Source: Lachnospiraceae bacterium
Lineage (GTDB): Bacteria > Bacillota > Clostridia > Lachnospirales > Lachnospiraceae
Length of the DNA stretch: 64,000 nucleotides
NCBI GenBank assembly: GCA_011959105.1
Contig: BLLU01000197.1
Location: 6,350-70,349, forward strand
Direction of reading: 5' to 3'
Position numbers and translations under genes: made by a program. The first letter of the stretch is position 1, and every line of letters begins with the position of its first letter. The notes below the pieces were generated by a model that ran no database searches, was not told the origin of the DNA, and was given only the letters and a program-made list of their open reading frames with translations. Below are positions 5,467-50,490 of this stretch, piece after piece.

Positions 5467-6543
5467 TTATTCTAATTCTTTTTCTATTTCTTCAATAGAA
5501 GGCAAACTGCTCTGGAACTCCTCTGGCAAAGACTGTGTGAGTTGATTCTGCCAATCTGCAACACCAATCGGGTTCTGATAACCAGATAAAGAATATTCCA
5601 CTACAGTTTTATTCTTACCCTTAACCAATAAAAGTCCGATTGTAGGTTTATCATCAGGATGGCACAAAATATCATTTACTATATTCTGATACATATTTAA
5701 CTGACTGATAAATCCCGGCTCAAAATCACAGGCTTTTAATTCTATCACGACATAGCAACGTAATTTCAAGTGATAAAACAAAAGATCTAAATAAAAATCC
5801 TGCCCTCCAACCTCTAAATGAACCTGCCGCCCAACAAATGCAAATCCCTGTCCTAATTCTAATAGAAAACTTTGAATATGTTCTGTTAGTTTCTGTTCTA
5901 TTTCCACCTCACGTCTTGGCATATCGGTTCCCAAAAAGTCAAACAAATAAGGATCTTTAAATATCTGATTCGCCATATCAGAATCAAGCGATGGCAATGC
6001 CACAGGGAAATTGTTGACTGTTTTTCCAGTACGTTCCATTAATTTACTTTGTATCTGTAACTCAAGTATCGTTTTACTCCAACCATTTTCTATTGTTTTA
6101 CCAGAATACCATATGCGTTCTTCCTGTGTTTTTAATTTATCCATCAAAGTAATATTTGTCCGCCATGGTATTTGTGCAACGACCCGTTGCACAATTTCAT
6201 AATCCCCCCAACACTGGGCAAATTTTCGCATATACTTAATATTACGTGGAGAAAAGCCGGACATTTCTGGAAAAGCAATTTTCAGATCCTTTGACATACG
6301 GTCAATAACCTTTGCACCCCATCCCTCTTCCTCTTGTTTTTTCAAAATAGCCCTGCCAATATTCCAGTAAAGGCAAATCATGCTTATATTGGCGTTCATT
6401 ACAACGGAAACTCTCTGCTTTTGAATCTCTTTCTTGATTTCTTCTATAAATTGCAAATAACTATCACTCATTTCAAAAAGATTTGGAGCAACAGGAAAAA
6501 TCACTCCCTCTTTATCTTTTCCCATGTGCTTTCGTTTATCCAT
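5467..6543 (-). CDS. DUF1016 / YhcG-family PDDEXK nuclease
   Basis: The N-terminal region is typical of DUF1016 (ICLYWNIGRAILKKQEEEGWGAKVIDRMSKDLKIAFPEMSGFSPRNIKYMRKFAQCW). The C-terminal restriction-endonuclease-like core reads DLLFYHLKLRCYVVIELK. SD AAAGGAGAG lies upstream. Confidence 0.85.
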   Translation of the reverse strand: MDKRKHMGKDKEGVIFPVAPNLFEMSDSYLQFIEEIKKEIQKQRVSVVMNANISMICLYWNIGRAILKKQEEEGWGAKVIDRMSKDLKIAFPEMSGFSPRNIKYMRKFAQCWGDYEIVQRVVAQIPWRTNITLMDKLKTQEERIWYSGKTIENGWSKTILELQIQSKLMERTGKTVNNFPVALPSLDSDMANQIFKDPYLFDFLGTDMPRREVEIEQKLTEHIQSFLLELGQGFAFVGRQVHLEVGGQDFYLDLLFYHLKLRCYVVIELKACDFEPGFISQLNMYQNIVNDILCHPDDKPTIGLLLVKGKNKTVVEYSLSGYQNPIGVADWQNQLTQSLPEEFQSSLPSIEEIEKELE

Positions 6544-6566
6544 AAGCGCTCTCCTTTATCTATTCC

Positions 6567-8255
6567 TTAATCATGGATGACAGTATTAAGTTTCTCTTCA
6601 AGTTGCTTACACTTTGTTGAATTTTTAAAAATATTGGCAGGATAAGACTCTGGAAAAAGTTCATCCATAAATTGTGTTGTTTGATCTACAAGTACATCAA
6701 CCAAAGAGATTACACTATTTCGGATACTATCTTTATCTATAACACACATGTTAAAATTCTCATCTTGTCCTTTATCCCTCAAAATAAAATGTAAAATAAA
6801 CCTATTAGCATGAATGCAGACCAGACGTTCCCTATTGTTATTTACATGCTCTTTCTTATCTTGCAAACATTGCTCAGCTTCTCTCATATATAAAACAGAA
6901 TTTAAAAGTGCATATGAATTTGTCGATCGATTCATTAATGCCTTATATGGTGTTTTAGTAATGTCCTCAGATAACGCCCCAATATTGCCTTTAGCAATTA
7001 CAGTATACGATATATCTGCATGTAAGCATGCTAACGCCACAATTGCTTCATCAAAAGAAATTTGCTTCTCTAAATTTGTAATTTTATCACCACTCTTATA
7101 GAGATACGAGTAATGAGCAAACGTCAACTCTGTCCGTAATCTATCCTGTTCAGGATCAAGCGCTGCAAAATCTTTATTCTCGATTCTATTTTGTGTATTA
7201 GATAATCTTGTAATTTGTGTAGTTGTTTCTGTGTCAACACTACTCAGATCAATTATTTGAATCATGACTATCGCTTTTGAAACTTGTTCTGGATTATCTA
7301 AAAACAAGGAGCCTATCGTACCTGTTGTCTGCGCTCCATTAACAAGAGAAACGCCCTCCAAAGCAAATAATCCTGTTGCATTAGTTGTACTATCCTTTGC
7401 TTTTCGCTTAATAGATTTACATAACAATTTAATCCCGTTATTGTAATAGTAAAACTTTTCTGGTTCTTGTAAAAGGACTTTTTTCATACCTTCATTTACA
7501 TCTGTATTTCCCTTATAAAATCGAATGTTTTTTGCGAACAAAGCATTTCCATAATTTTTATACCATTCACCTACTGTTGCTGCTGAAATAGTTCCGTAAT
7601 AAGAAACAAAAGGAACATCCACTTTTCCCCAATTGGATAAAATAACATCATCAATATTAATTCCCAGCTGCTCTTGCCCATTCGCCAAAAAAGTATATAT
7701 ATCCTTAAAATTAAGCTCGTCAAACAATAAAATCGTACTTATCTCATCATTTGTTTTTCCCATCAGCTGCAAAATTGGGCGCAATATATAATCATTTGCA
7801 TTTTGATTTCCTGTATGTATAAATATGGCATGTATTTGATACCCCATTTGCGTTAAGGCCACATCTATATCAATACTCTTTGCCATTATTTTAGCATTTG
7901 AACCTGCCAAATCCTCTTCCAATACTCTCTGAACTCCTTGAACAAAATTAGACATTTCGTCTTGAGTAATGGAACCGCCTCCGTCTGATCGCCATTTACT
8001 TTGAACAATAAATAATTTTTTCTGAGTTTCATCCAAATATATCGCATCAATTCCCATATCATGGTAACCATCTGTAACATGAACACTCGCCTGCGACACT
8101 TCAAGGCCAGATGTCATAATTAATGCAAATGCCGCTAAGGCTCTCGTTTCAAAATGTCCATTTGTATCATTAGGAATATCTGCCATGTCGATTTTACCTT
8201 GAAACATTTCCTGAATCCGTACCTGCACTCGACGCATATTAATATTATTTGCCAT
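6567..8255 (-). CDS. AIPR-family (abortive infection phage resistance) protein
   Basis: The N-terminal part reads HVTDGYHDMGIDAIYLDETQKKLFIVQSKWRSDGGG, and the central motif is LVNGAQTTGTIG; both are characteristic of AIPR (PF10592-like). This was recognised by eye, not searched. Confidence 0.75.
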   Translation of the reverse strand: MANNINMRRVQVRIQEMFQGKIDMADIPNDTNGHFETRALAAFALIMTSGLEVSQASVHVTDGYHDMGIDAIYLDETQKKLFIVQSKWRSDGGGSITQDEMSNFVQGVQRVLEEDLAGSNAKIMAKSIDIDVALTQMGYQIHAIFIHTGNQNANDYILRPILQLMGKTNDEISTILLFDELNFKDIYTFLANGQEQLGINIDDVILSNWGKVDVPFVSYYGTISAATVGEWYKNYGNALFAKNIRFYKGNTDVNEGMKKVLLQEPEKFYYYNNGIKLLCKSIKRKAKDSTTNATGLFALEGVSLVNGAQTTGTIGSLFLDNPEQVSKAIVMIQIIDLSSVDTETTTQITRLSNTQNRIENKDFAALDPEQDRLRTELTFAHYSYLYKSGDKITNLEKQISFDEAIVALACLHADISYTVIAKGNIGALSEDITKTPYKALMNRSTNSYALLNSVLYMREAEQCLQDKKEHVNNNRERLVCIHANRFILHFILRDKGQDENFNMCVIDKDSIRNSVISLVDVLVDQTTQFMDELFPESYPANIFKNSTKCKQLEEKLNTVIHD

Positions 8256-18650: not shown

Positions 18651-21062
18651 TCACTCCATCCACTTTTCAAATTCCGATATGGGCACCGGCTTGGAGAACG
18701 CGTAGCCCTGTGCCTTGTCATAACCGTAATCCCGCAAAAATTCAATCTGCTGCTGGGTCTCCACGCCCTCAAATATAATATCTTTTCCCGCAGCCCGCAC
18801 CAACTGGCCAATACGATTGATATACTGCTGTTCCTGATCCGTCTCATAGTGGTCGATAAAACTCTTGTCCACCTTCACAATATCCACATTGGCGTCGATC
18901 AGCATGCCCAGGGAAGAGTAACCGATGCCGAAATCATCCATGGCGATCCGCAGCCCGTTTTCCCGCAGACAGGTCATCTGCTGGATCATGCCCAGGGGAT
19001 TGCCGGAGATACAACTCTCCGTCACCTCTATCTCAATATACTCCGGCTCCACTCCATACTTGCGCAGCATCCCCATCACCTTGTCACAGAAATGATGGTC
19101 CCGGAAATGTACCCGGGAGAAATTCACGGAAATGGGAACCCTTTTCCTGCCCTCGGCCTTCCAGCGCTTCAGGCAGGACAGGACCTGGCGGAATACGCAG
19201 AAGTCCACGTTTACTATATACCCCACTTCCTCCAGCACGGGTATGAACTGATCCGGATACTTCAGACTGCCGTCGGCATTGTGCCATCTGACCAGGGCCT
19301 CCGCACCCACCACCTCTCCTGTCCTCATGGAGAATTTGGGCTGCAGATAGGCTTCCACGTCTCCCTTGTCTATGGCGTCATGGATACTGGCCACCACCTT
19401 GATCTTCTCCGCCCTGGTCTGGCGCAGCCGGTCGGTGTACACCATCACATGGTTCAGATAGTCCTCCTTGATGGTCTTTCTGGCGTGGTTGGCGGCGTCT
19501 ATCATGGTAAAAATCTCCGCCTCGGGATTGTCTATGCAGTAAAGGCCGGCCCGCACCTGCAAATCCCCCATGGGATATCTGTGCTGCAGATAGTCGGAAA
19601 AGCGGCTCACGGAATGACGGATCTCCTCCTCTATCTCCTGCTGGTTCTCTCCCGTTACCAGGGCCACAAACCGATCCGCATACACCCGGCCGCAGATACA
19701 GCGCTTCGCATTCATATACCGCAGCCACCTGGCCATGTCCTTCAGCAGCTGATTGCCTTCGCTGTAGCCAAAGTTCTCATTCAGATAGGCAAAATTACTC
19801 ACATCCATGTACACCATGGCATAGGCCAGACCGGGATCGCACTGATACAGCGCACGGCGCACCTCCTTCAGGAAAGCGCCGTAGTGATACAGTCCCGTCA
19901 GTTCGTCCCGCCTCAGCGCCTCGATGTGTTCCTGGTTCTGCCTGTTCTGGAACCGCAGGGCCACAAAGGAACTGATTACCTTACCCAGCTGGGTCAGAGT
20001 GTTCAATTCCGTCTCAGACACCTGTTCAATGGGCTTATGCCTGCTGCAGGTCATATAACCGATGGGATGCCCATTGCTGTACAACAGCAGATTGATGAAG
20101 CTGCCGATCTCATATTCATGAAAAAATGCCATATCCCGCTGGGAATAACTACCCTTCTCCACATCGCAGGTGAGATTGATACCGTCCTTGTCAAAACCCG
20201 AAAAGAAATCATCCCAGATGTCCAGGGTGTTGATCTGCTCCGGGTTGGGAAGTATCCCCTCCTCCCGCCGCCATCTGTTTGACACCATGGTGCTGTTGTC
20301 CCGGATAAACTCTGAGACGATCACCTCGTCATACCCAAAATGCCAGCCCACCTGCTTCACCAGCATATCCAGGCTGCTGTCCAGATCGGTGGTATCCGAC
20401 AGAAGACTTACCGCAAAGGCGATGAAGGGACTGTCATATCGAAGCAGCTTCTCCTCCGCCATCTTCTCCGACGTCACTTCCTCATCAATCTGTACATCCA
20501 CATTTTCCACGCTCTCGTCATAGATAACAAAGGGAATTTTGTTGTGGATACCATGTCCCACCGCCTTGCCGCAGCGGATCAACGCCTGCCGCAGGTCACA
20601 GGCCGGCCGGGGCAAATGGTAAACGCCCAGGGCCACTCTGCAGCGCAGTTTCTCCCTGCGGCCGAAATATCTGTCCTGCAGCTTCCTCTGCACCTTGCGG
20701 CAGTGTTCTTCCAACTCCCAGGCATCCTCCCACTCCACAAAGGCCATCAGCACATCCTTGCAAAGACGGCAGAAAAGGATATTCTCGGTCAACTGAAAAC
20801 AGCGCTGCAGCAGAACCGCCTGGTTCTCCAGCACCGCCATGGCAAAAGCGAAACCGTATTCTTCTGTCAGTTTTGAAATATTGCCCACATGTAATATCAC
20901 CACATGGTATGTACCCTGGGGCTTCTTACTCATCCAATCGCTGATCCGCTCTTTCGCGGCAGGGAAAGTATAGAGGTCTGTCAGCGCGTCCCTGTCCCCC
21001 CTGACCGTCCCCGTACTCTCCGGGCTTATTATGCTGTCCATCTGTGTTTTATCCCTCATCAT
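18651..21062 (-). CDS. GGDEF-EAL signalling protein (cyclic-di-GMP turnover), with an extra degenerate N-terminal GGDEF-like region
   Basis: GGDEF-domain entry (DELTGLYHYGAFL) and EAL-domain motifs (EALVRW, DDFGIGYSSL, KVDKSFI). Confidence 0.85.
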   Translation of the reverse strand: MMRDKTQMDSIISPESTGTVRGDRDALTDLYTFPAAKERISDWMSKKPQGTYHVVILHVGNISKLTEEYGFAFAMAVLENQAVLLQRCFQLTENILFCRLCKDVLMAFVEWEDAWELEEHCRKVQRKLQDRYFGRREKLRCRVALGVYHLPRPACDLRQALIRCGKAVGHGIHNKIPFVIYDESVENVDVQIDEEVTSEKMAEEKLLRYDSPFIAFAVSLLSDTTDLDSSLDMLVKQVGWHFGYDEVIVSEFIRDNSTMVSNRWRREEGILPNPEQINTLDIWDDFFSGFDKDGINLTCDVEKGSYSQRDMAFFHEYEIGSFINLLLYSNGHPIGYMTCSRHKPIEQVSETELNTLTQLGKVISSFVALRFQNRQNQEHIEALRRDELTGLYHYGAFLKEVRRALYQCDPGLAYAMVYMDVSNFAYLNENFGYSEGNQLLKDMARWLRYMNAKRCICGRVYADRFVALVTGENQQEIEEEIRHSVSRFSDYLQHRYPMGDLQVRAGLYCIDNPEAEIFTMIDAANHARKTIKEDYLNHVMVYTDRLRQTRAEKIKVVASIHDAIDKGDVEAYLQPKFSMRTGEVVGAEALVRWHNADGSLKYPDQFIPVLEEVGYIVNVDFCVFRQVLSCLKRWKAEGRKRVPISVNFSRVHFRDHHFCDKVMGMLRKYGVEPEYIEIEVTESCISGNPLGMIQQMTCLRENGLRIAMDDFGIGYSSLGMLIDANVDIVKVDKSFIDHYETDQEQQYINRIGQLVRAAGKDIIFEGVETQQQIEFLRDYGYDKAQGYAFSKPVPISEFEKWME

Positions 21063-22738: not shown

Positions 22739-23431
22739 ATGGCCGGCACAGTCACCCATCTGGTCATCGCAGATCAGCTGCTGGAACCCCTGGGAATCAA
22801 AAATCCCGCCCTGTTCTACTGCGGCAGCCTGGCCCCCGACGCCATCATGGCCCGGGAGGGATATCAAAGAGAAATGAAGCGGCACACCCATTTCAAGGAC
22901 GGCATACACCTGAAAGAACTTCATCTGCCGGATTGTTATGATAAATACCGACGTGCTTTCCGGGCTTTCGCGGAACAGTATCTGCATCCCGGCAGCACGG
23001 ACTATGAACTGTACCTGGGTTATGTGACCCATATTCTGGCCGATGAAGTATTTATCCTGACTCTCCGGGACGCCCACTCCCAAAGACTTCAGGCCGCCGG
23101 GAAAAACCCGGAGGACCCGGCGTATTTCGCCGCTTTCGGCAGGGATGTGGATCTGCACGACCGGCGGCTGGCCCGGGAGTACCCTTTTCGGCATCCCATG
23201 CCCCACATCCTGCTCACGGAACAGGATTATGAGATTCCGGGCTATATCACCCGCCGGGAACTGCTAAACAGCAAAGCCTTTATCATCCGCAAGAATTTCC
23301 CTTCTTCCCGGGAAAACGGAGAGCCCCGGGAGGAATCCTCCCCTGCCGTCTTTTCCTTCGAGGAAAATCAAAACTTCATCCGGGAAGCCTGCAGCTACAT
23401 CCAGAAGGCGATCAAAGACTGTACCCTGTAG
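22739..23431 (+). CDS. Zinc-dependent phospholipase C-like / HD-fold-like hydrolase (family uncertain)
   Basis: Starts MAGTVTHLVIADQLL, with His-rich motifs (HTHFKD, THILADE). SD GGGAGG lies 7 nt before ATG 22739. Confidence 0.5.
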   Translation: MAGTVTHLVIADQLLEPLGIKNPALFYCGSLAPDAIMAREGYQREMKRHTHFKDGIHLKELHLPDCYDKYRRAFRAFAEQYLHPGSTDYELYLGYVTHILADEVFILTLRDAHSQRLQAAGKNPEDPAYFAAFGRDVDLHDRRLAREYPFRHPMPHILLTEQDYEIPGYITRRELLNSKAFIIRKNFPSSRENGEPREESSPAVFSFEENQNFIREACSYIQKAIKDCTL

Positions 23432-25485
23432 TACAGGGCCGGATTGGCGCTCCGTATGGAATCCTCGCTGTGGGCGAAGATCCGCAGGAAGGTAAACAGA
23501 AGTGTCACGGCGCAGGCCGTCACCACCAGCCGCCGCAGAGGGCGGCAGTCTCCGCCGTTCTCCGCCCGCCACCCGTGGCAGGCCAGGATGGCAAGCAGGC
23601 TGCCCACCATGCCCAGCCACACAAAATCCCCAAAATACCGGGTGAGGAGTCCCGCCATCTGAGCGTCCGCCACCGCCACCGCCGCCATGGCAAGCTGACT
23701 GATCCATACCAGCCCATGGCATCTGCTGTCTCTGTACCACTCTTTCCGAAACAACCCATAAAAGCCAAAACACAGCACCGGGAACAGCCACAGTACACCT
23801 CCCACCATCCGCTCCGACACCGTCAGTCCCATATAAGCCGTTTCCACCGGGAAATCCTGTAAAAAGGGAAACAGGCTGCCAATCCGGGGAGGCTGCAGCA
23901 AGTAGGAAAAGAGCCCCAGTCCGCACCGGCCCCAGACCCATCCCCTGTGGGTCATATCATTGGTGGTCAGATTGTAGCTGGCGCCAAAATCCAGGGGAGA
24001 GCCAAAGCGGAGGGCATTGTACCACATGAGCCCTGCCGCCACCGCCCCAAAGGGCAGGCACAGCGCCAGGGTCTGAACTTTGCTCTTCCCCGAGAACAGC
24101 TTCCGCTCCCGAAACACAGCCCGGCCAAACAGCACCGGCCCTGCCGCCAAAATCAGCAGCATCTGGGGTCTGCAGCCGGCCACCAGCGCCAGGCAGAGGG
24201 AACCTGCTCCCAGCCGCCAGGCCGTATATTCCCCGGAAGCCGGGCCATTGTTTTGCTCCCTTATGTCAGGTTCTCTTTCCGCGGAGATCCAGAAAGCCAG
24301 TCCCCACACGCCCAAGGCCGTCCCTGCCAGGATAGGCACCAGGTACAGGTCCGGCTTATACACCGCATAGCCCAGTCCGGAAGCCGCCCCCATGGTTACG
24401 CATAGCAGCAGGTACAATATATAGGGGGTTCCGGGAAACCATCTTCTCACCATCTGCCACAGCAGATAGGCAATCCCCGCCATCAACAGGGCCCCCAGCA
24501 GGAAAATGCAGTCCGCATGGGGCAGATGGCGGCCCGTGAGCATATAGAAGGGCAGATAAAAAAACACCACGGGAACCACACCGAAATACACATAATAACT
24601 GCCCTCATAATAGGCATGATCCCATTTGAAATCCCCGGCCCCCAGTCCCGCCGCCGCCCGGGCCCAGGGATCATAGGGATTTTCCACCACCTCCAGGGCA
24701 GGCGCCTCTCCGATGTCCACCCGTCCCTGGGTCAGGGCCTCCGTCAGCCGATAATACTGCTGGTGATGTTCCATATAGGCCGGCCAGGCCAGAGCATCGG
24801 TATTCCATCCAAGCATCCCATGAAAAAAAAGCAGCTGAAGAGCAATGCATGCCGCTGTCAGCAGCCACTGCCCCCTCCGGGTCAGATCCGTCCCCACCCG
24901 GTAGAGCGGACTGGCGGAACGCAGCAGATACAGACAGCAGATTCCCCCTGCCAGCAGCAGAAAACGCGGCCAGGAAAAGCAGAGGGGCGCCGCCGGGTTC
25001 AGCGCCACTGCCTCCCGGGAGATGCTGTCCCCCCGCAGCCCCCGGATCACCACCCGGAGTTTTTGTACGTCACGACCGAAGTGCAGCCGCAGATACTGGC
25101 TGGCCGCCAGGTCCCCCCTGACCACCCGGACAGGCGTCCACAGATAGGAAGCGTTGGCCTCGTCCACCGCTCCCACAGCCACTTCCGCCTGCTGCCCCTC
25201 CTCCAAAGCCAGGGACAGATAGGCCACCGGCCTGTGAATCCCGGAAAACTCCACCACCGCTTCCTCTTCCGCGATCTCATACCGATCCCCCACGGCCTCC
25301 AGCCCATAGAGGCTGCATACCGCATCCTCCACGGGCGCATAAACCAGGGACTCCCAGTGTTTATAATTGAACAGGAATAGTTCACAAAGCAGCACCGCCA
25401 GAACAATAGCCGCCAGGACAACCCCTTCCCTGCCCGGCCTCAGCGCCTTCTCTTTTTCCACCAGCATATTCCACAAGCCCCCCAT
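23395..25485 (-). CDS. Large polytopic membrane protein, GT-C-like glycosyltransferase candidate
   Basis: About 700 aa with many TM helices. The segment WDHAYYEGSYYVYFGVVPVVFFYLPFYMLTG is reminiscent of ArnT/PMT-type enzymes. The family was not confirmed. Confidence 0.55.
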   Translation of the reverse strand: MGGLWNMLVEKEKALRPGREGVVLAAIVLAVLLCELFLFNYKHWESLVYAPVEDAVCSLYGLEAVGDRYEIAEEEAVVEFSGIHRPVAYLSLALEEGQQAEVAVGAVDEANASYLWTPVRVVRGDLAASQYLRLHFGRDVQKLRVVIRGLRGDSISREAVALNPAAPLCFSWPRFLLLAGGICCLYLLRSASPLYRVGTDLTRRGQWLLTAACIALQLLFFHGMLGWNTDALAWPAYMEHHQQYYRLTEALTQGRVDIGEAPALEVVENPYDPWARAAAGLGAGDFKWDHAYYEGSYYVYFGVVPVVFFYLPFYMLTGRHLPHADCIFLLGALLMAGIAYLLWQMVRRWFPGTPYILYLLLCVTMGAASGLGYAVYKPDLYLVPILAGTALGVWGLAFWISAEREPDIREQNNGPASGEYTAWRLGAGSLCLALVAGCRPQMLLILAAGPVLFGRAVFRERKLFSGKSKVQTLALCLPFGAVAAGLMWYNALRFGSPLDFGASYNLTTNDMTHRGWVWGRCGLGLFSYLLQPPRIGSLFPFLQDFPVETAYMGLTVSERMVGGVLWLFPVLCFGFYGLFRKEWYRDSRCHGLVWISQLAMAAVAVADAQMAGLLTRYFGDFVWLGMVGSLLAILACHGWRAENGGDCRPLRRLVVTACAVTLLFTFLRIFAHSEDSIRSANPALYYRVQSLIAFWM

Positions 25486-27578
25486 GCCGCCAGACTCACC
25501 AGTTCCGCCCCGCGGAAATACCAAAATCCCCTGTAGCGCAGGCTTACCTGCTCCGCCCCCTCCTGCAGCCGGACCCGAACCACATGATTGTCCCCGTCTT
25601 CTACAATCAGGGAGCGGCCCTGGCCGTCTATGGCCTCATAGCCCCCGTAATACAGCAGGGGGACTTCCACCCAGTCTCCCGGCCCCACATTGCAAAGCTG
25701 CAGTTCAATCCGGGTTCCCTGTTTGTAATATCCGGTGAGTTCCGCACTGCCCCCGGTGACATAGCGGTCCACCGTAAGGCTGTCCCTGTTTGTCCCCCAC
25801 AGATAGTATTCATTGTCATACCCTGCGGAGGCATAAGTGTCCACCGCCATCCCCGGCCGCAGCACCGGCGCCAGTTCCGTGGTATACGCAGTGCCCCACA
25901 GGATAAAAGCCAGGCTGCACACCCCCAACACCCCACAGGCCGTCAGACTCCGCTCCTGCCTGCTCCGCCGGGCCAGAATACCGGCCGCCGCCATACACAG
26001 CATGGGAGAGGCCAAGCTGAGGAACCGCCAGGGCATCTGCACCGTTTTGCAGAAGGCATTCACCGGCCCCGGGCGCTGCAGAATCTGCCAGGGAAACAGA
26101 GTGCTGGACATAAAGAGCAGCGCCCCGGCCATCCCTGCCATCAGGCCGTAGAACCGCTCCCGGCCATCCTCCTCTTTTTTCCCCAGCAGAAAATGTACCC
26201 CGCAGAACACCAGCGCTCCCGTGACCCCCACGCCCAGAGAAAGGGACATATTGCCCTGCAGCCCCTGGTCCAGCAGCTGGGAATGTCCGAAACCGGTGTT
26301 GAACACATTGAACAATTCCGTGGGAAACACGGCGTTCTGATAGAATTCCGTATTTTCCGGGGTATGTTTAATGGCCAGATCTTCCCCCAGATAATACGTC
26401 AGAAAGGCCGCCAGATACCAGAGATTCATAAGCAGGGTCAGCAGTCCCGCCTTCACAAAACCCAAAAACCGCTGCTTTTTCACAAATTCTCTGTGACACA
26501 GCGCCGCCGCTGCCGCCACCGTAAACGCGGCGAATACGGTGCTGATGATATGGGACTGAAGGACACCGCCGCATCCCAGGGCCAGCACCCACCATTTCCG
26601 GCAGTCCCCGGCCAGCAACAGGTACAGCCCATATAAAAGCAGAGGGAAAAACAGCATGGCCAGGGCCTCCCCCACCGCCGCTCTGTGATAGAGATTCACC
26701 GCACGCCAGGTGGACAGAGTGTACAAAACGGATGCCAAAAGCCCTGCGTACCGGGACCGGGCCATGCCCTTGGCACAGACATACATGATCCAGGCCGTCA
26801 TGCCGTTGATGGAAAACACAAAGATATGATACGCCGCCACCGGGGAAGCCCCCAGCAGCCGCAGCAGAGCGGGAAAATACAAAAAAAGCTCCGGATATAA
26901 GCTGGAAGAAATATATCCGTAGCCATGATTATGAGTGGGATGCAGCCTCACGGGAAACTGGCCCGACAACAGGCCGTCCTTGATCCCCTCAATCCGGTAC
27001 AGATGAAAATTCAGGTCATGCCCGGGCCCCGTCATGCCGTAAAACAGAGGATAGCTGGCCAGCACCGTAACACCCAGCAGAACACAGAAAATAAAAATAC
27101 CGACCCCCTTTTCTTCCTCTCCCTGCCGGTTAAATCCCCGCATCCGCCACCCCGCCAGTCCCAGAATCAGGACCACGGCCGCGATTCCCAGACTCACCAG
27201 AAATCCGTCGCTGTAGATAGGACCTCCCCCGGCAGGGGACAGTTCCAGAGAGGTCAGTACGCCCTCCTGCCAGCCATGGAAAACCACTTCGCTCTCGTCC
27301 TTCTCCAGACGGATCAGAAAGGGCTCCCCGGCATCCCCCGCCCCCAGCAGATTTCCTTCGCCGCTGCGGACCACCACAGGCCCATACCCGCCAACCAGCA
27401 CCCGATATTCCCCCCGGGGCAGGGTCAGGTGCGGCGCGTAACTGTGCCAGGCTGCTTCCCCCGGTGTGCTCTCTGCCGCCAGACCTGTCTGCAATCCCTG
27501 ACGGCCATATGTATTTATCAACAACAATAACAGCACCGCCGCCGAAACCAGCAGTGCCGGTATCCATCCCTTTTTCAT
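25440..27578 (-). CDS. Large polytopic membrane protein, YfhO/PTPS-related GT-C-like candidate
   Basis: Signal/TM, then a beta-rich segment, then the motif GHDLNFHLYRIEGIKDGLLSGQFPVRL, then more than 10 TM helices. It overlaps the downstream gene by about 46 nt. Confidence 0.55.
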   Translation of the reverse strand: MKKGWIPALLVSAAVLLLLLINTYGRQGLQTGLAAESTPGEAAWHSYAPHLTLPRGEYRVLVGGYGPVVVRSGEGNLLGAGDAGEPFLIRLEKDESEVVFHGWQEGVLTSLELSPAGGGPIYSDGFLVSLGIAAVVLILGLAGWRMRGFNRQGEEEKGVGIFIFCVLLGVTVLASYPLFYGMTGPGHDLNFHLYRIEGIKDGLLSGQFPVRLHPTHNHGYGYISSSLYPELFLYFPALLRLLGASPVAAYHIFVFSINGMTAWIMYVCAKGMARSRYAGLLASVLYTLSTWRAVNLYHRAAVGEALAMLFFPLLLYGLYLLLAGDCRKWWVLALGCGGVLQSHIISTVFAAFTVAAAAALCHREFVKKQRFLGFVKAGLLTLLMNLWYLAAFLTYYLGEDLAIKHTPENTEFYQNAVFPTELFNVFNTGFGHSQLLDQGLQGNMSLSLGVGVTGALVFCGVHFLLGKKEEDGRERFYGLMAGMAGALLFMSSTLFPWQILQRPGPVNAFCKTVQMPWRFLSLASPMLCMAAAGILARRSRQERSLTACGVLGVCSLAFILWGTAYTTELAPVLRPGMAVDTYASAGYDNEYYLWGTNRDSLTVDRYVTGGSAELTGYYKQGTRIELQLCNVGPGDWVEVPLLYYGGYEAIDGQGRSLIVEDGDNHVVRVRLQEGAEQVSLRYRGFWYFRGAELVSLAAWGACGICWWKKRRR

Positions 27579-44174: not shown

Positions 44175-44598
44175 CTATAAAGTCAGTATAGCAAAAAAAA
44201 GGTCGCTTGAGAAGCCCTCAGTCTCGAAACCTTGCGCCCCGGAAATATCTATCTCCCCCTTCTCCAGCAGACTTTTAACCTGACTTCGAGATAATCCTAA
44301 CACCATGGCAATCTGTTTTTCCCAGCGGATACTCAGTTGATATGGGTTCTTTATGGTGATTTCGATCCGATCTCCAAAACTGCTGTTTTCTATGGTTTCG
44401 TGCTTCTTTATTTTTCCCATACATTTCCGCATGCTGCTCATTATTGTCTAAAAAGCATGTCATCCGTAAAAGTTTCTTCACGGTGACTTTCCAATTCGCC
44501 CTTATCCGGCATATTCCACAAACGCTCAGATATCTTTCTGCTATAGTCCATAAATCGATCTCCTTTTCTGGTTGTTTCTTTGTGGTATAGCGTAACAT
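44175..44598 (-). pseudogene. Possible frameshifted small gene (DUF1062-like, recalled from memory), split over overlapping frames
   Basis: One frame reads ...IDLWTIAERYLSVCGICRIRANWKVTVKKLLRMTCFLDNNEQHAEMYGKN. From an A-run (gggaaaaataaag, ~44410-44422) onward, another frame reads KKHETIENSSFGDRIEITIKNPYQLSIRWEKQIAMVLGLSRSQVKSLLEKGEIDISG. Alternatively these are two coupled mini-ORFs: a 36-aa ORF from ATG 44551 whose TAA overlaps (TAATG) the ATG of 44175..44441. Confidence 0.35.
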
Positions 44599-44827
44599 AT
44601 TTCAATCCCGCCTTCCACCTCATGCATTTTTGTTACCAAATATGAACCAATACCGGGTATCAACTCCTATTTTGCTGGTTATGCTTTTTATCGCAAACAA
44701 AGCAGTTGTGTATACCCAGTCTCAGGAGTAGAATTATAATCTAAAGTACGTTTGTGTTTATGGTATTTCCGGTCAAGAAAAAAAATCCGTTTTGTACTAA
44801 AATGATATTCAGAAGGGGGGGACGCAT

Positions 44828-46396
44828 TTGAGCAAGTCTAACGCAATCAATGGCTCCATCGACTTTATTGAAAGCCGTTTGACCGAAGCCATAGATCTAG
44901 CTGAGTTGGCACAGCAGACATTTTTCTCGAAAACGCATTACCAACGGCTGTTTCGTGCCATTGTTGGCGAACCTGTGATGGAATATGTAAAAAATCGTCG
45001 GTTACAGCTTGCCTGTCGTGATGTGCAGGCAGGAAGCATCGGAATTTTAGATATTGCCCTTAAATATGGCTATGGTTCTCACGAAGGATTCACCCGGGCG
45101 TTTAAGGCGTACTTCGGCGTAACCCCCTCCGAATACCGTAAATGTAGTAATCCAAACGAAACGGAGGCAGACGTAATGTTATCGAACGAACTATTAAACA
45201 GGATTGGACAAAATGCAGAAAAAACTTCCGCAATACTAAGCAATTTCATCGAGGAAGCGGAAAAGCTGGTTTCTCTCACAAATAAAACGGCAGAGTCAGC
45301 AGGTGAGAAAGGCGCGGCAGCGACCATTGTCGCTAATGGGTTGAGTCATCTTGCTCAGCGCATGGGACAGCTTAGGAATGAGGCTGTAAGGAACTTGACA
45401 GCAGGGGGTAGGTCCTCTTTTGAAATGTTTGACAGGATATATGCCTTGATCCGCTGCATTGACGACGGGGTTTTCCAGATGCATCTGCTGCGCTTCTTTT
45501 GCGGCATTGAAATGGGGCGCATTTCCCCGCCCAAAGACCAATTTGAGGCGATTGATGCAGACTATGCCAAGTTATGCAGTGAATTTGCGGGCAATAAGGA
45601 ACACATGATTGCCTTAATGAACGAAGCGGTTGAACTGCTCAATGAGGACATTAAGCAGGAAGCTGCAAATTGCATGGAAACCTGTATCAAAGAGGTGAAC
45701 AAAGCCATTGAGATCGGCGAGAGCACTGCGGCCTCGGCACATGCCGCCGCCAAATCGTTGAACCACCGCGGCAGAGCATTCTTTCATATTGCCAAAGAGG
45801 TAAGCGCAGGCATAGACATGTTAAAAAATGTGACCGAGGATTTCAATATTCTCCAGGATAATGCTCTCCAGAATTTATCAACTGCCCTTTCTCAATTAGC
45901 CAACATTGTTTACAGTATGAACATCCATGGTTTCAACGCTTCCGTTGAAGCCGCCAGAGCAGGCAATCCCGCCGAATGCCTGGCTGCCGCCGAAAAGATA
46001 GCGCAATTTACGGAGGTTTTGCAAACCACTTACCGGCAATGTGAAACTCTGTGCAGCGAATATGGGCGCCTAACGGAATTAACAAAACGAAACGGCCCGC
46101 AATGTAAGCAGGCTCTTACCGAAAAGCATATTGATGACATCCTTTTTCAAAGCAGAATCGTATCGTCACAATTCGCGCTCGAATCGGAACGCATCAATCG
46201 CGAAACATTCCGTGCTCTTGCTCAGACTGCCGTTACAGCCGACACAAATTTGATGAAAACCCGGAATGTCGCAGAATACCGGGAAGCTATTGCAAAATTC
46301 CTTCAAGCATTAAACAGGGAAATTTCCACATTGGAAATTGGCGGCAGTTTTGCCTATTTGGCTAAGGAATATGAGAACTTTCTGAAACACATTTGA
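44828..46396 (+). CDS. Soluble AraC-type HTH domain fused to a long helical domain with a degenerate MCP-signalling hairpin
   Basis: Residues 1-105 form an AraC HTH pair (TFFSKTHYQRLFRAIVGEPVMEYVKNRRL...ALKYGYGSHEGFTRAFKAYFGVTPSEYR). Residues 369-379 are FNASVEAARAG, the chemoreceptor tip motif. Residues 313-325 are HRGRAFFHIAKEV, resembling GRGFAVVAxEV. No TM segment is visible. Confidence 0.75.
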   Translation: MSKSNAINGSIDFIESRLTEAIDLAELAQQTFFSKTHYQRLFRAIVGEPVMEYVKNRRLQLACRDVQAGSIGILDIALKYGYGSHEGFTRAFKAYFGVTPSEYRKCSNPNETEADVMLSNELLNRIGQNAEKTSAILSNFIEEAEKLVSLTNKTAESAGEKGAAATIVANGLSHLAQRMGQLRNEAVRNLTAGGRSSFEMFDRIYALIRCIDDGVFQMHLLRFFCGIEMGRISPPKDQFEAIDADYAKLCSEFAGNKEHMIALMNEAVELLNEDIKQEAANCMETCIKEVNKAIEIGESTAASAHAAAKSLNHRGRAFFHIAKEVSAGIDMLKNVTEDFNILQDNALQNLSTALSQLANIVYSMNIHGFNASVEAARAGNPAECLAAAEKIAQFTEVLQTTYRQCETLCSEYGRLTELTKRNGPQCKQALTEKHIDDILFQSRIVSSQFALESERINRETFRALAQTAVTADTNLMKTRNVAEYREAIAKFLQALNREISTLEIGGSFAYLAKEYENFLKHI

Positions 46397-46416: not shown

Positions 46417-46456
46417 CCTCCGCAGCAACGACGAAAAACGTTGCTGCGGAGGTTTA
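46417..46456. terminator. Bidirectional intrinsic terminator
   Basis: 14-bp stem CCTCCGCAGCAACG / CGTTGCTGCGGAGG followed by TTT. Confidence 0.6.
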
Positions 46457-46463
46457 AATAAAT

Positions 46464-46754
46464 TCATCCAATATCTTCCGGGACCATGCTCTCCCAGCGA
46501 TGCCTTGGGCAGGCGTTTTTGTTCATGGCGGCCCTCAGTTCCACATAACAGCCGCAGACACGGCACATGCCTTCCAGCAGCAAGTCGCAGTCCTTGCATA
46601 CCGCAAGCCGTTCCTCGTAGACCGCTTCCGGCGCTTTTAATTCCGGTTCAATATTGGCTATATATTCCTGCAGATTTTTAAAATATTCCTCCTGACCTGC
46701 CATTTCCCTTGTCAGGCATTTCCGGCAATATCTCCGGGATTGGGAATCTTCCAT
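46464..46754 (-). CDS. Small Cys-rich protein (DUF6171-like)
   Basis: CRKC...CKDC...CRVCGC...ACP arrangement in 96 aa. Confidence 0.55.
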   Translation of the reverse strand: MEDSQSRRYCRKCLTREMAGQEEYFKNLQEYIANIEPELKAPEAVYEERLAVCKDCDLLLEGMCRVCGCYVELRAAMNKNACPRHRWESMVPEDIG

Positions 46755-46896: not shown

Positions 46897-46970
46897 CGTG
46901 CGTTAGAGGATTCGAACCCCCGACCTTTTGGTCCGTAGCCAAACGCTCTATCCAGCTGAGCTAAACGCAC
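46897..46970 (-). tRNA. tRNA-Arg (anticodon ACG)
   Basis: Minus strand GTGCGTTTAGCTCAGCTGGATAGAGCGTTTGGCTACGGACCAAAAGGTCGGGGGTTCGAATCCTCTAACGCACG. The acceptor stem is GTGCGTT/AACGCAC, the anticodon loop is CUACGGA, and the T-loop is GGTTCGAATCC. CCA is not encoded. Confidence 0.9.
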
Positions 46971-47027: not shown

Positions 47028-48497
47028 TCAATAGTTTTTTCTAATTTTTTTCGTTTCTTCGTTCAAATTCTCCACTATAGCGGTTACTTCAGAAACCATT
47101 TCGCTGTTTCGCTCGCAGGCCTCATAGGTCTCGTTGGAATGGGCCGACACTTCCTCCGTGATGGCGGAGATGGTCTGAATGCTCTCTACAATACCGGCAT
47201 TGGAGGTATCCAGGCTTTCCACTGTCTCCCTCATGGCGCTGGTCTGCATACTGATTTCCTTTGTCCTCCCGGCAATCCTTTCAAAACTGCCCAGCACCCT
47301 GCTGGCTGTGACGGCATGGGATTTATTGCTGTCCGTCACCAGGTCAACGGCCGCGGACACCTCTTTCAACTCCGCATTAATGTTATGGATCAATTCCGTG
47401 ATGCTGACGGTGGCAGACTTGGTCTGGTTGGCCAGGGAAGAAATCTCCCCTGCCACCACCGCAAATCCTTTTCCCGCGTCTCCCGCTCTGGCCGCCTCGA
47501 TACTGGCATTCAGGGACAACAGGCTGGTCTGGTTGGTGATGCCGGTGATCATCTCAATAATGGTATTCATCTTCTCCGTCTGCGCATTCAGATCCTCCAT
47601 CCTGCTGAGCACGGTATCATTGGCCGCTATGGACTTTTGTACCTGATCTGCCATGGCGTCTATATCTTTCCGGCCCTCCCGGATCATCTCTGCCGCATCG
47701 TCCACGCCCCGGTCTATGGTCTCCGCATTCTCCTTTACCCGGGCGATATGCTCTTGAATCTCCCCGGTGCGGGCCATCTGCTGCTGTACGGAATCCGCCG
47801 TCTCCGTGCTGCCCTGAGTCACTTCCTTCATGGAGTCCTTGATATGGATAACCGACTGGTCCAGCTTCTCCATTTTCTCCGTCACCTGCCCGATTCCCTG
47901 GCTGATCTGCCCTGCCAACTCCAGGGTGTCGCTGAGCATCTGGGTGGACTTATCCTTCTCCGCGTTCAGATTAGCCAGCTTCTGCTTGTTAAGTTTGTTC
48001 AGACTCATGGTGGTCATAACGCAGAAAACGGCAATCAGCGTAATGCTGGCCACCCGGATCTCCACATCCGCAATCTGTTCGGGCGCATAACCCACCGTCA
48101 CGGCCACATATACAATATCCAAAATATTAAACAGGCAGAGAGTTCCGCCGAACAGGGCCGTATAACGCACGTCCGAGTACAGGAGCAGTACCACGAACAT
48201 GGGGATCGCATATACGAAATTGGTAATGCTGTTGGCCGTAAAAATTGCAAATATATACAGGATGCCATAACACACGGCTATGATATGCATAATGAGACCG
48301 CTGTCCGGATTCCTTTTGTACAGCACCCATTCCACGATCACGGGCACAAGACATATGGCTGCAAATATGCATATGTACCCCACCGTCCTGGCGCCCTTGA
48401 GCAATTCCACCAGGTAGGCCAAGGCAAGCACCGCATCAATTATTGTATGGCACACCACAGCCATTCGGTTGATATAAGCCTTCTCTGACAGTTTCAT
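47028..48497 (-). CDS. Methyl-accepting chemotaxis protein with a polytopic N-terminal membrane domain (paralog 1)
   Basis: LLSLNASIEAARAGDAGKGFAVVAGEISSLANQT. About 6 hydrophobic helices at the N-terminus, and no periplasmic domain. The start is ATG 48497 behind GGAGG. Confidence 0.85.
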   Translation of the reverse strand: MKLSEKAYINRMAVVCHTIIDAVLALAYLVELLKGARTVGYICIFAAICLVPVIVEWVLYKRNPDSGLIMHIIAVCYGILYIFAIFTANSITNFVYAIPMFVVLLLYSDVRYTALFGGTLCLFNILDIVYVAVTVGYAPEQIADVEIRVASITLIAVFCVMTTMSLNKLNKQKLANLNAEKDKSTQMLSDTLELAGQISQGIGQVTEKMEKLDQSVIHIKDSMKEVTQGSTETADSVQQQMARTGEIQEHIARVKENAETIDRGVDDAAEMIREGRKDIDAMADQVQKSIAANDTVLSRMEDLNAQTEKMNTIIEMITGITNQTSLLSLNASIEAARAGDAGKGFAVVAGEISSLANQTKSATVSITELIHNINAELKEVSAAVDLVTDSNKSHAVTASRVLGSFERIAGRTKEISMQTSAMRETVESLDTSNAGIVESIQTISAITEEVSAHSNETYEACERNSEMVSEVTAIVENLNEETKKIRKNY

Positions 48498-48696
48498 TTT
48501 CAACCTCCTAAATCATTCCCTTTAAAGGAAAGTGCAATTCTTTCATTGTTATAACACATTTTCCGCAAAAATAATATGTCAATTTTGTCTTTTTTTCTGC
48601 TATTTTTGTCTGGCGGGAATCAGCAAAACAAATGCCGGGAAAACCCCTTTGAGGCTTTCCCGGCAATCCCGCACCGGCTTATGTATGCATCACGGC

Positions 48697-50166
48697 TCAA
48701 TAACCTGCCTTTATCTTCTTTGTTTCCTCGTTCAGGCTCTCCACGATGCCCGTCACCTCCGTTACCATGCCGCTGTTCCTCTCGCAGGCTTCATAAGTCT
48801 CATTGGAATGGGCCGACACCTCCTCCGTGATGGCGGAGATGGTCTGGATGCTCTCCACAATGCCGGAATTGGCGGCCTCCAGACTGTCCACTGTCTCCCG
48901 CATGGCGCTGGTCTGTCGGCCGATGCTCCCTGTCATCTCCGCGATCTGCTCAAAACTGCCTCGCACTTCCCTGGCCGTGGCCGCATGAGACTTGTTGCTG
49001 TCGGTCACCAGGTCGATGGCCTCAGACACTTCCTTGAGTTCCGCATTGATATCCCGAATCAGTTCCGTGATACTGACGGTGGCGGACTTGGTCTGGTTGG
49101 CCAGAGAGGAAATCTCCCCCGCCACCACCGCGAAGCCCCTTCCCGCCTCCCCTGCCCTGGCGGCCTCGATGCTGGCGTTCAGAGACAGCAGGCTGGTCTG
49201 ATTGGTGATGCCGGTGATCATCTCAATGATGGTGTTCATCTTCTCCGTCTGTACGCTCAGATCCTCCATCCTGCTGAGCACAGTGTCATTGGCCGCTATG
49301 GACTTTTGCACCTGTTCTGTCATGGCGTCTATATTTTTCTGCCCGTTCCGAATCATCCCCGCCGCATCGTCCACCCCCCGGTCTATGGTCTCCGCATTCT
49401 CCTTTACCCTGGCGATATGATGCTGTATCTCCTCGGTGCGGACCATCTGCTGCTGTACGGAATCCGCCGTCTCCATGCTGCCCTGGGTTACTTCCTTCAT
49501 GGAACCCCGGATATGTAATACCGACTGGTCAAGCTGCTCCATCTTCTCCGTCACATGCTCAATCCCCTGGCTGATCCGCCCTGCCAGCTGCAGGGTACTG
49601 TTGAGCATCTGGGTGGACTTATCCTTTTCCGCGTTCAGATTGGCCAGCTTGCCCTTGTTCAGTCTGTTTAAATATACAGTGGTCATAACACAGAACAAAG
49701 CGATCAGGATAATGCTGGTGGTGCGGATCTCCACATCCGCGATCTGGTCAGGGGCATATCCCACCGTAAGCGCCTTATATACCACATCTAATATGTTCAT
49801 CAGACAGAGCGTCCCACAGTACAGAACACTGAAACGCACATCAGAATACAGGAGCAGAACCACGAACATGGGAACCGCGTACACGAAGTTGGTGACGCTG
49901 TTGGCCGTGAAAATGGTAAATACATATAATATGCCATAGAACACGCCGATCAGATGCATAATGAGACCGCTGTCCGGGTTCTTCCTGTACAGCAGCCACT
50001 CCATCACCACCGGCAGAATACACAATGCCGTAAAGACACATATATAGCCCACAGTCCTGGTACCCTTGAACAATTCCAGCATATAGGCCAGGGCCAGCGC
50101 TGTGTCGATGATGGTGTGGCATAAAATTGCCGCCTTATTGATGTACGCCTTTTCTGATACTTTCAT
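48697..50166 (-). CDS. Methyl-accepting chemotaxis protein (paralog 2, tandem duplicate)
   Basis: LLSLNASIEAARAGEAGRGFAVVAGEISSLANQT. Same architecture as paralog 1 and very similar throughout. The start is ATG 50166 behind GGAGGGG. Confidence 0.85.
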   Translation of the reverse strand: MKVSEKAYINKAAILCHTIIDTALALAYMLELFKGTRTVGYICVFTALCILPVVMEWLLYRKNPDSGLIMHLIGVFYGILYVFTIFTANSVTNFVYAVPMFVVLLLYSDVRFSVLYCGTLCLMNILDVVYKALTVGYAPDQIADVEIRTTSIILIALFCVMTTVYLNRLNKGKLANLNAEKDKSTQMLNSTLQLAGRISQGIEHVTEKMEQLDQSVLHIRGSMKEVTQGSMETADSVQQQMVRTEEIQHHIARVKENAETIDRGVDDAAGMIRNGQKNIDAMTEQVQKSIAANDTVLSRMEDLSVQTEKMNTIIEMITGITNQTSLLSLNASIEAARAGEAGRGFAVVAGEISSLANQTKSATVSITELIRDINAELKEVSEAIDLVTDSNKSHAATAREVRGSFEQIAEMTGSIGRQTSAMRETVDSLEAANSGIVESIQTISAITEEVSAHSNETYEACERNSGMVTEVTGIVESLNEETKKIKAGY

Positions 50167-50490
50167 TTTTATACCCCTCCGCGCGCTGCTGCGCGCACTT
50201 AAATTAATAGTTGAATACGCATTTTTATTCAACCTTTCCCCTTCTTTCATAAAATCCATTTCTCTGCGGCCTGCGCAAATACGTTATCTTATGTAGGATA
50301 ATACCGTTTTGGAATGCACGGTTATGCTATCTGATTTGTAAATAGTACTTTTGCATTATATCACACTTTTATAAAAAAAACTAGAATAAACAGGAATATC
50401 TCTGTTATTTTTTGAGGAATGTGCTATAATGGTAAAGGCATTTCAGAGCCGGGCTGCCCCCCGGCAAACCTTAAAAATAAAGAGTCTGAG

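Follow-up and report, generated by a model that had tools for sequence, protein, structure and literature searches.

The stretch of DNA analysed here, referred to as the window, comprises 64,000 nucleotides (nt) from a Lachnospiraceae bacterium (assembly GCA_011959105.1, contig BLLU01000197.1, positions 6,350 to 70,349 of the forward strand). The gene in question, at 44828..46396 of the window, encodes a soluble regulator in which an AraC-type DNA-binding domain is followed by a long helical domain. A preliminary description of this DNA had read the protein as a fusion of such a DNA-binding domain with a chemoreceptor-like signalling hairpin, encoded next to two genes for methyl-accepting chemotaxis proteins (MCPs). 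Family profiles uphold the derivation from the MCP tip; the single hairpin is replaced by about six tandem tips. The features of the gene are listed below with the residue numbers of the encoded protein. For the repeats T0-T5, which fall into a C-strong and an N-strong class explained further on, the tip-equivalent motif, the score on the tip of the neighbouring MCPs (MCP1 and MCP2) and the hhalign probability against MCPs are given.

44828..46396, + strand: whole gene, soluble AraC-family regulator with an MCP-tip-repeat domain; open reading frame (ORF) of 522 amino acids (aa)
44812..44821, + strand: ribosome-binding site GAAGGGGGGG, read directly in the sequence
44770..44789, + strand: approximate mRNA 5' end of the regulator, from contig starts in 4 mouse-gut metatranscriptomes
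44828..45142, + strand: residues 1-105, complete bipartite AraC/XylS DNA-binding domain of the MarA/SoxS/Rob type (Pfam, NCBIfam, PDB, Foldseek)
45185..45397, + strand: repeat T0, residues about 120-190, C-strong, tip-equivalent AESAGEKGAAATIVA at 155-169; 25 bits on the MCP1/MCP2 tip, 94.4% against MCPs
45416..45637, + strand: repeat T1, residues 197-270, N-strong, FQMHLLRFFCGIEMGR at 216-231, turn 232-235; 34 bits on the tip, 95.9% against MCPs
45653..45862, + strand: repeat T2, residues 276-345, C-strong, HRGRAFFHIAKEV at 313-325, turn 311-315; 16-19 bits on the tip, 63% against MCPs
45863..46087, + strand: repeat T3, residues 346-420, N-strong, FNASVEAARAG at 369-379, turn 378-381, with Cys405; 24 bits on the tip, 94.5% against MCPs
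46103..46267, + strand: repeat T4, residues 426-480, N-strong, FQSRIVSSQFALESER at 440-455, turn 457-458; 8-9 bits on the tip, 15.8% against MCPs
46268..46393, + strand: repeat T5, residues 481-522, C-strong, shortened, GGSFAYLAKEY at 505-515, turn 500-505; about 4 bits (4.5) on the tip, 30.6% against MCPs

The start codon is TTG, with GAAGGGGGGG lying 6 nt upstream, and the start position is kept across 25 homologues, whose N-terminus reads MKKSNAI... The exact protein is present on 83 public contigs, and its exact sequence was found in mouse-gut samples. In the four mouse-gut metatranscriptomes, contigs begin at 44770, 44780, 44771 and 44789, span the gene and end at about 46463-46668, with zero contig coverage of 44242-44683; the regulator is therefore transcribed as its own unit in the mouse gut. 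A consensus scan detected no sigma-70-like promoter on the + strand. The RNA word depth of the regulator is comparable to that of the MCP genes, with the caveat that contig depth reflects expression poorly and that some DNA may have been carried over.

With regard to the DNA-binding domain, Pfam HTH_18 matches residues 27-105 at 72.9 bits (cutoff 33.6) over 79 of the 80 profile positions, and HTH_AraC matches two stretches of the regulator at 54.8 bits. This bipartite domain with two helix-turn-helix (HTH) motifs, scoring above the gathering threshold, makes the regulator a member of the AraC/XylS family. Its completeness, as described earlier, is confirmed by the NCBIfam SoxS model, which aligns over residues 1-105 of 107 positions. 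The top NCBIfam models are SoxS, Rob, RamA and MarA, every one of them far under its equivalog cutoff, and with a best score of 77 bits against cutoffs of 174 (SoxS) and 380-426 (Rob) the regulator is not orthologous to a named MarA/SoxS/Rob member. RamA, MarA, Rob and SoxS also lead the PDB sequence matches and occur among the Foldseek matches, in which the top match of the full-length model is STM3175 (7r3w), with the HTH domain alone being recognised. Judged from sequence comparison, the N-terminal location of the domain, the lack of an AraC-type ligand/dimerisation domain before it and the closest similarity place the regulator in the MarA/SoxS/Rob subgroup. The N-terminal placement had been contrasted with the C-terminal one of classical AraC proteins. 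As a novelty in itself it is rejected, since Rob of E. coli and STM3175, the albicidin-resistance regulator of Salmonella, likewise carry a MarA-like DNA-binding domain first and a regulatory domain second.

The ~415 residues that follow are all helix in two AlphaFold models, and the regulator contains no transmembrane segment (maximum Kyte-Doolittle 19-residue mean of 0.89), both in line with the earlier reading; a Pfam search of the regulator returned no sensor or HAMP domain. The tip motif FNASVEAARAG is located, as reported, at nt 45932-45964, corresponding to residues 369-379, and is directly followed by NPAECLAAAEKIAQF. A look-alike motif had been placed ~55 residues upstream; it occupies residues 313-325, 56 residues before FNASVEAARAG, and represents the C-helix half of T2. 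When the strict tip pattern NAx[IV]E[AST]AR was searched in all six frames of the 64-kb window, exactly three occurrences were obtained, one in the regulator and one in each MCP, and the pattern was absent from 50 shuffles of the sequence.

A word-indexed search with residues 110-522 retrieved 52 clusters (47-97% identity) from metagenome bins of Lachnospiraceae and Defluviitaleaceae, and an exhaustive phmmer search of 1.84 billion representatives returned only 63 proteins at E <= 0.001, nearly all of 500-580 aa and with the match beginning at residue ~110-135. HTH_18 is present in all 36 divergent full-length members. A scan of genome contigs was flooded by ordinary MCPs carrying the tip motif and yielded 4 true family loci. 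Within this family, the Pfam MCPsignal model is matched by 23 of 25 close relatives (best E 6.3e-13) and, at E <= 0.01, by 35 of the 36 divergent members (26-59% identity; best E 3.2e-20), and three members (P0082, P0078 and P0099) exceed its gathering cutoff with 50-56 bits in two to three separate stretches. The best MCPsignal stretch in any member covers profile positions 14-131 of 172, which is not a complete domain. A family profile restricted to the C-terminal part was also searched against all PDB sequences. Its significant matches were chemoreceptor signalling domains only, namely Tsr (1.4e-9), TM1143 (2e-8) and Aer (1.4e-7), followed by TM14 and PcaY, all of them in tip register, and designed coiled coils ranked after the chemoreceptors with much weaker scores. 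Given the MCPsignal matches of the family and these PDB matches, the homology of the C-terminal helical domain to the MCP signalling domain is established by profile comparison at the family level, and chance resemblance is rejected.

On the same type of evidence, the regulatory domain (~410 residues) is made up of about six tandem degenerate MCP-tip hairpins of two alternating classes. Profiles of the six segments T0-T5 were each searched against the complete neighbouring MCPs (~500 aa), and the best domain of all six fell on the same ~60-residue tip (309-376 of MCP1, with EAARAG at 336). In the divergent alignment, nearly all predicted helix turns carry a tip-like motif. Repeats of the N-strong class (T1, T3 and T4) retain the N-helix half of the tip (F-Q-x-N-L-L...I-E-x-A-R-x-G), and those of the C-strong class (T0, T2 and T5) its C-helix half (G-R-G-F-x-x-I-A-x-E). 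Within classes, hhalign probabilities are high (T1 with T3 98.8%, E 7e-17; T1 with T4 97.5%; T3 with T4 95.5%; T0 with T2 94.9%; T0 with T5 96.6%; T2 with T5 95.9%), and between the two classes they are low. These repeats are clear only with the divergent alignment (A2), the hhalign comparisons with the shallow alignment (A1; at least 52% identity, effective sequence number 2.5) not being significant. Residues 118-275 align collinearly with 276-418 (99.3%, E 8e-21, 136 columns), and when the frame is moved by one repeat (197-345 against 346-480) the value is still 98.5%; therefore, the basic duplicated unit consists of two hairpins, with all hairpins homologous to one another. Stacked on MCP1, the six repeats of the window protein share one common register:

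T0: TAESAGEKGAAATIVANGLSHLAQR
T1: FQMHLLRFFCGIEMGRISPPKDQFEAIDADYAKL
T2: AASAHAAAKSLNHRGRAFFHIAKEVSAGI
T3: YSMNIHGFNASVEAARAGNPAE-CLAAAEKIAQF
T4: FQSRIVSSQFALESERIN--RETFRALA
T5: REI-STLEIGGSFAYLAKEYENFLK

The best MCPsignal stretch falls on T1 in P0078 and P0094 and on T3 in P0082, P0099 and the window protein. Similarly, the tip of Tsr is anchored on T1 of the family profile, and the tips of TM1143 and the 4JPB fragment on T3. This differing anchoring by Pfam and by solved receptors fits several tip copies per protein. Among the 53 aligned sequences R377 is invariant and Cys405 is kept in 45, the other cysteines being variable.

The AlphaFold model of the C-terminal domain alone (53-sequence alignment) reached a predicted local distance difference test score (pLDDT) of 92.1 and a predicted template-modelling score (pTM) of 0.80. 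In full-length numbering, its helices span residues 120-187, 197-231, 236-310, 316-340, 346-377, 382-420, 426-456, 459-478, 481-499 and 506-521. The helices break at five of the six tip-equivalent positions (232-235, 311-315, 378-381, 457-458 and 500-505), the equivalent position of T0 being modelled as unbroken helix, and at four of the five repeat boundaries (188-196, 341-345, 421-425 and 479-480). Turns occur every 46-80 residues, which differs from the single long hairpin of MCPs with ~100-150 residues per arm. Outside the tip repeats there is no modelled helix long enough for an adaptation arm; a regular expression for the methylation site (Glx-Glx-x-x-Ala-Ser/Thr) had no match in the regulator and none in two bona fide MCP controls either. 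The preliminary description had suggested looking for a four-helix-bundle hairpin in a predicted structure. Helical, tip-like hairpins were indeed predicted, but as a multi-helix single-chain bundle instead of a single hairpin, and the model leads us to propose that the repeats fold as one compact single-chain antiparallel helical bundle.

To date, the family carries only the database names 'AraC family transcriptional regulator' or 'helix-turn-helix domain-containing protein', Pfam and NCBIfam hold no model for the C-terminal domain as such, and literature searches for an HTH-MCPsignal architecture or for tandem tip repeats found no describing paper, which agrees with the earlier remark that no characterised example was known. 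The C-terminal tip-repeat bundle would accordingly represent a new, previously unrecognised regulatory domain, defined by sequence in a small discrete family mainly of Lachnospiraceae.

The following features surround the regulator gene in the window:

46417..46452, strand unassigned: hairpin with a 14-bp stem and 10 G-C pairs between the convergent regulator and DUF6171 genes (sequence; RNA contig ends)
46464-46754, - strand: DUF6171 gene for a small Cys-rich protein, convergent with the regulator gene (119 bits)
46897-46970, - strand: tRNA gene between the regulator and MCP genes (Rfam RF00005, 63.6 bits)
47028-48503 and 48697-50259, - strand: two tandem paralogous MCP genes, 0.6-3.9 kb from the regulator gene
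44175-44441, - strand: 88-aa ORF matching only positions 78-132 of the 135-position DUF1062 model

The hairpin is likely a terminator shared by the regulator and DUF6171 genes; the latter is not conserved beside other family members. In the metatranscriptomes, the tRNA gene appears as a short high-depth piece with divergent flanks. Upstream of the regulator lie the ORF at 44175-44441, probably a truncated DUF1062 remnant, and GH9/GH43 glycosidase genes. The two MCP genes, described earlier as neighbours of the regulator, are indeed close downstream, but the DUF6171 gene and the tRNA gene intervene. Both MCPs have an N-terminal multi-spanning membrane module of ~170 residues and no periplasmic, HAMP or PAS sensor recognisable in Pfam, an unusual input arrangement. 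Among the ~30 largest genes scanned across the window, no cheA or cheW was found.

Further afield, 13 additional family contexts were inspected (L001, L003, L005, L007-L010, L015, L017 and L018-L021), and an MCP gene stands beside the regulator in none of them. Because two genes intervene and the arrangement is not kept in the other contexts, the MCP adjacency in the window is coincidental. An all-versus-all comparison of eight contexts (the window, L001, L003, L005 and L007-L010) revealed nothing conserved except the regulator gene itself, leaving no conserved neighbours as candidate targets and no stress or efflux gene conserved nearby. Only two of the 14 contexts are linked to motility, the window and L015, where two flagellin genes, a FliK-like hook-length gene, fliS and a class I tRNA synthetase gene (tRNA-synt_1b) immediately precede the distant member P0065 (L015 108-9901); by a rough, uncomputed estimate, this frequency is about chance for flagellated Lachnospiraceae. 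Mobile or accessory neighbours are frequent and include three serine recombinases (L003 1995-7107), a tyrosine integrase (L019 4024-4848) and a transposase fragment plus RelB/YoeB beside the family gene (L021 7613-8786), which suggests that family genes are located in variable genome regions. As to individual members, P0036 (474 aa; L005 9361-9453, L006 7647-7739) is a widespread allele on 77 contigs in which a frame change near residue 488 deletes T5, and L010 is interrupted by several frame breaks, which could reflect a pseudogene or a faulty assembly.

Elsewhere in the window, adjoining genes for a DUF1016/YhcG PDDEXK nuclease and an AIPR (abortive-infection-like) protein at 5467-8255 (- strand) form a possible small defence island, and a gene at 18651-21062 (- strand) encodes an 803-aa GGDEF-EAL protein of cyclic di-GMP signalling. 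Two ORFs of ~710 aa at 23395-27578 (- strand), with no Pfam match or a sub-threshold YfhO match only, probably encode large membrane proteins.

The interpretation that we favour, with confidence only a little above even, is that the regulator is a cytoplasmic, Rob-like one-component transcription factor gated by an MCP-tip-derived sensor or partner-binding domain. By analogy with other MarA/SoxS/Rob-type domains, its DNA-binding domain would recognise an asymmetric promoter site in monomeric form and interact with RNA polymerase. The helical domain would have originated from an MCP hairpin tip by serial tandem duplication, with a two-hairpin unit copied about three times, and most likely gates the DNA-binding domain as in Rob, the signal being a ligand, a redox cue or a protein partner. 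The regulator presumably acts on promoters elsewhere in the genome; an absence of conserved neighbours is typical of global regulators of the MarA/SoxS/Rob type. In Rob and STM3175 the C-terminal domain has a GyrI-like alpha/beta ligand-binding fold, whereas that of the regulator is a 410-residue all-helical tip-repeat bundle; with this difference, the two proteins would serve by analogy as the best working model for its function. The protein would no longer be a chemoreceptor, having no membrane segments and no HAMP domain and being predicted to lack long adaptation helices and a single homodimeric hairpin.

The conserved residues can be viewed in the same light. In an alignment with Tsr, the conserved positions of the N-strong repeats correspond to F373, I377, L380, N381, V384, E385 and R388 of Tsr, with F369, N370, E374 and R377 of the regulator equivalent to L380, N381, E385 and R388. 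These Tsr residues form trimer contacts in real receptors. In the regulator, they may now pack repeat against repeat, and such intramolecular packing would explain their conservation without a CheA/CheW partner. Many of the tip-derived helices are likely buried against each other and not exposed as in a receptor dimer.

Several observations weigh against this interpretation. The window copy itself scores only 16.8 bits with MCPsignal (E 0.0065), below the gathering cutoff of 34.6, so that the suggested search with HTH_18 and MCPsignal was positive for the former and, for the latter, negative in the window copy but positive in the family. The window copy is somewhat more degenerate than its relatives, and its weak score is attributable to G171 and H219, which replace a near-invariant E and N. 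Furthermore, T3 is the sole segment of the regulator that matches MCPsignal when taken alone (19.3 bits, profile positions 36-71), and the link of T4 and T5 to the MCP tip is indirect only, running through T1/T3 and T0/T2, respectively. The AlphaFold output was read as secondary structure and confidence. Foldseek found no match with E <= 0.001 for the model of the helical domain; the best was 8QAE, a designed single-chain antiparallel six-helix barrel (E 0.09), followed by the stacked four-helix-bundle sensor domains of PilJ, NasR and McpS (E 0.2-1.7). Foldseek is known to perform poorly on long helical bundles. Since it recognised only the HTH domain in the full-length model and nothing significant in the domain model, structure comparison neither confirms nor refutes the relationship to MCPs. 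In addition, the conserved equivalents of trimer contacts would also fit a partner-binding role, and the gating mechanism is drawn solely by analogy with Rob.

Some of these points have been weighed as signs of a chance resemblance, in which an unrelated Ala-rich coiled coil would mimic the MCP tip merely by composition: the low score of the window copy, the five of six isolated segments that lack a Pfam match, and the failure of Foldseek to retrieve MCP structures. Such an origin is extremely improbable. Family members exceed the curated MCPsignal cutoff, the PDB profile search is significant for MCPs only and in tip register throughout, all six segment profiles settle on the same 60 residues of ~500-residue MCPs, and the strict motif does not arise in shuffled sequence. 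The family MCPsignal matches, the segment profiles and the PDB search effectively refute it. Rather unlikely is a thiol/redox or small-molecule sensor, whose bundle would bind a ligand or sense oxidants through Cys405 and thereby shift the availability of the DNA-binding domain. The conservation of Cys405 against variable other cysteines suggests that it may take part in redox sensing or ligand binding. The weak structural neighbours include the ligand-binding domain of PilJ, the NIT domain of NasR and the HBM domain of McpS, and SoxS, Rob and RclR, close relatives in the DNA-binding domain, belong to stress regulons. However, those structural matches are insignificant, a lone conserved cysteine may be purely structural, and stress or efflux genes are not conserved beside the family.

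The preliminary description had gone further and envisaged a factor that docks to or mimics chemoreceptor arrays or titrates CheW/CheA. In its elaborated form, the exposed tip repeat or repeats would bind CheW or the P5 domain of CheA, or join mixed trimers with MCP dimers, so that the activator is sequestered at or released from arrays, or CheW/CheA is titrated, and transcription becomes coupled to array state. The six-tip bundle would then act as a single-chain pseudo-oligomer that plugs into arrays or binds free CheW, CheA or MCP tips. Its three N-strong repeats retain the residues with which real receptors make trimer-of-dimers and CheW/CheA-P5 contacts, and the AraC activator would be held back or set free depending on whether the array is assembled or on its signalling state. 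We regard both the docking and its transcriptional consequence as improbable, and the pseudo-oligomer version as equally doubtful. What speaks for them is that the best-conserved residues of the N-strong repeats sit on the outer, interaction-prone face of receptor N-helices, that MCPs are encoded 0.6-3.9 kb away in the window genome, that the P0065 gene closely follows genes for flagellin, a FliK-like protein and FliS, and that at least two host lineages (those of the window and of P0065) are flagellated or chemotactic; unusual soluble receptors such as DosM, with two signalling domains, and the DNA-binding FrzCD provide precedents. However, the association of the family with motility or chemotaxis genes (2 of 14 contexts) is at about the level of chance by the rough estimate above, with no conserved MCP, cheA or cheW neighbour; the claim is left unsupported by the 0 of 13 other contexts with MCP adjacency and by the scanned window genes, which include neither cheA nor cheW. 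Moreover, one half of the tip is degenerate in every repeat, the tips are predicted to be embedded in a single-chain multi-helix bundle and not in a free homodimeric four-helix tip, and the a/d-type hydrophobics, the E/R pairs and the turn glycines would be explained equally well by intramolecular packing. If docking were true, it would connect the chemotaxis machinery physically and directly to gene expression, and it is the sole reading that would make the finding truly remarkable.

Comparison with known systems helps to delimit the Rob-like regulator favoured here. The MCP signalling domain (PF00015; Tsr 1QU7, T. maritima TM1143 2CH7) shares with it the tip motifs QTNLLALNAxIEAARAG and GRGFAVVAxEV, whereas the regulator keeps only the tip (about 30+35 residues) in approximately six half-degenerate copies fused to a DNA-binding domain. 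It also differs from MCPs in lacking a HAMP domain and a membrane or sensor module, and in being modelled as a single-chain bundle with no long adaptation helices and not as a homodimeric hairpin. DosM of Vibrio cholerae is likewise soluble with more than one MCP tip per chain. It reportedly carries two signalling domains of full length, works in arrays together with CheA and CheW and has no DNA-binding domain, whereas the regulator has six short degenerate tips, no complete MCPsignal domain and no che linkage. The stacked four-helix-bundle sensors (McpS HBM, PilJ LBD and NasR NIT) and 8QAE resemble the AlphaFold model in combining two long with several short antiparallel helices, but their matches to it are insignificant (E 0.09-1.7, TM 0.13-0.44) and a sequence relationship is absent. 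FrzCD of Myxococcus xanthus combines an MCP-signalling-domain sequence and DNA binding in one soluble protein; its basic N-terminal tail attaches it to the nucleoid in a non-specific manner, and it has been described as unique in that respect (PMC5716589, PMC12077210). Nevertheless, FrzCD is a genuine receptor whose signalling domain is complete and whose gene sits in a che-type operon, whereas the regulator has an AraC HTH of the sequence-specific type and no complete signalling domain.

The broader meaning of the family follows from the nature of the module involved. The MCP signalling tip is among the most conserved protein modules of prokaryotes and is regarded as dedicated to the control of CheA/CheW in arrays. 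A tip copied about six times, made into a compact bundle and joined to a DNA-binding domain would indicate that this module can be exapted for another job. It would also add a regulatory domain not recognised so far to the one-component systems of abundant gut Clostridia, with expression of the window copy in the mouse gut. Should the bundle have kept its binding to chemotaxis proteins, array state and transcription would for the first time be linked directly. If it has not, the family would offer a natural case of a homo-oligomeric interface, the tip bundle, turned into an intramolecular repeat fold, a conversion relevant to protein evolution and to the design of single-chain helical bundles.

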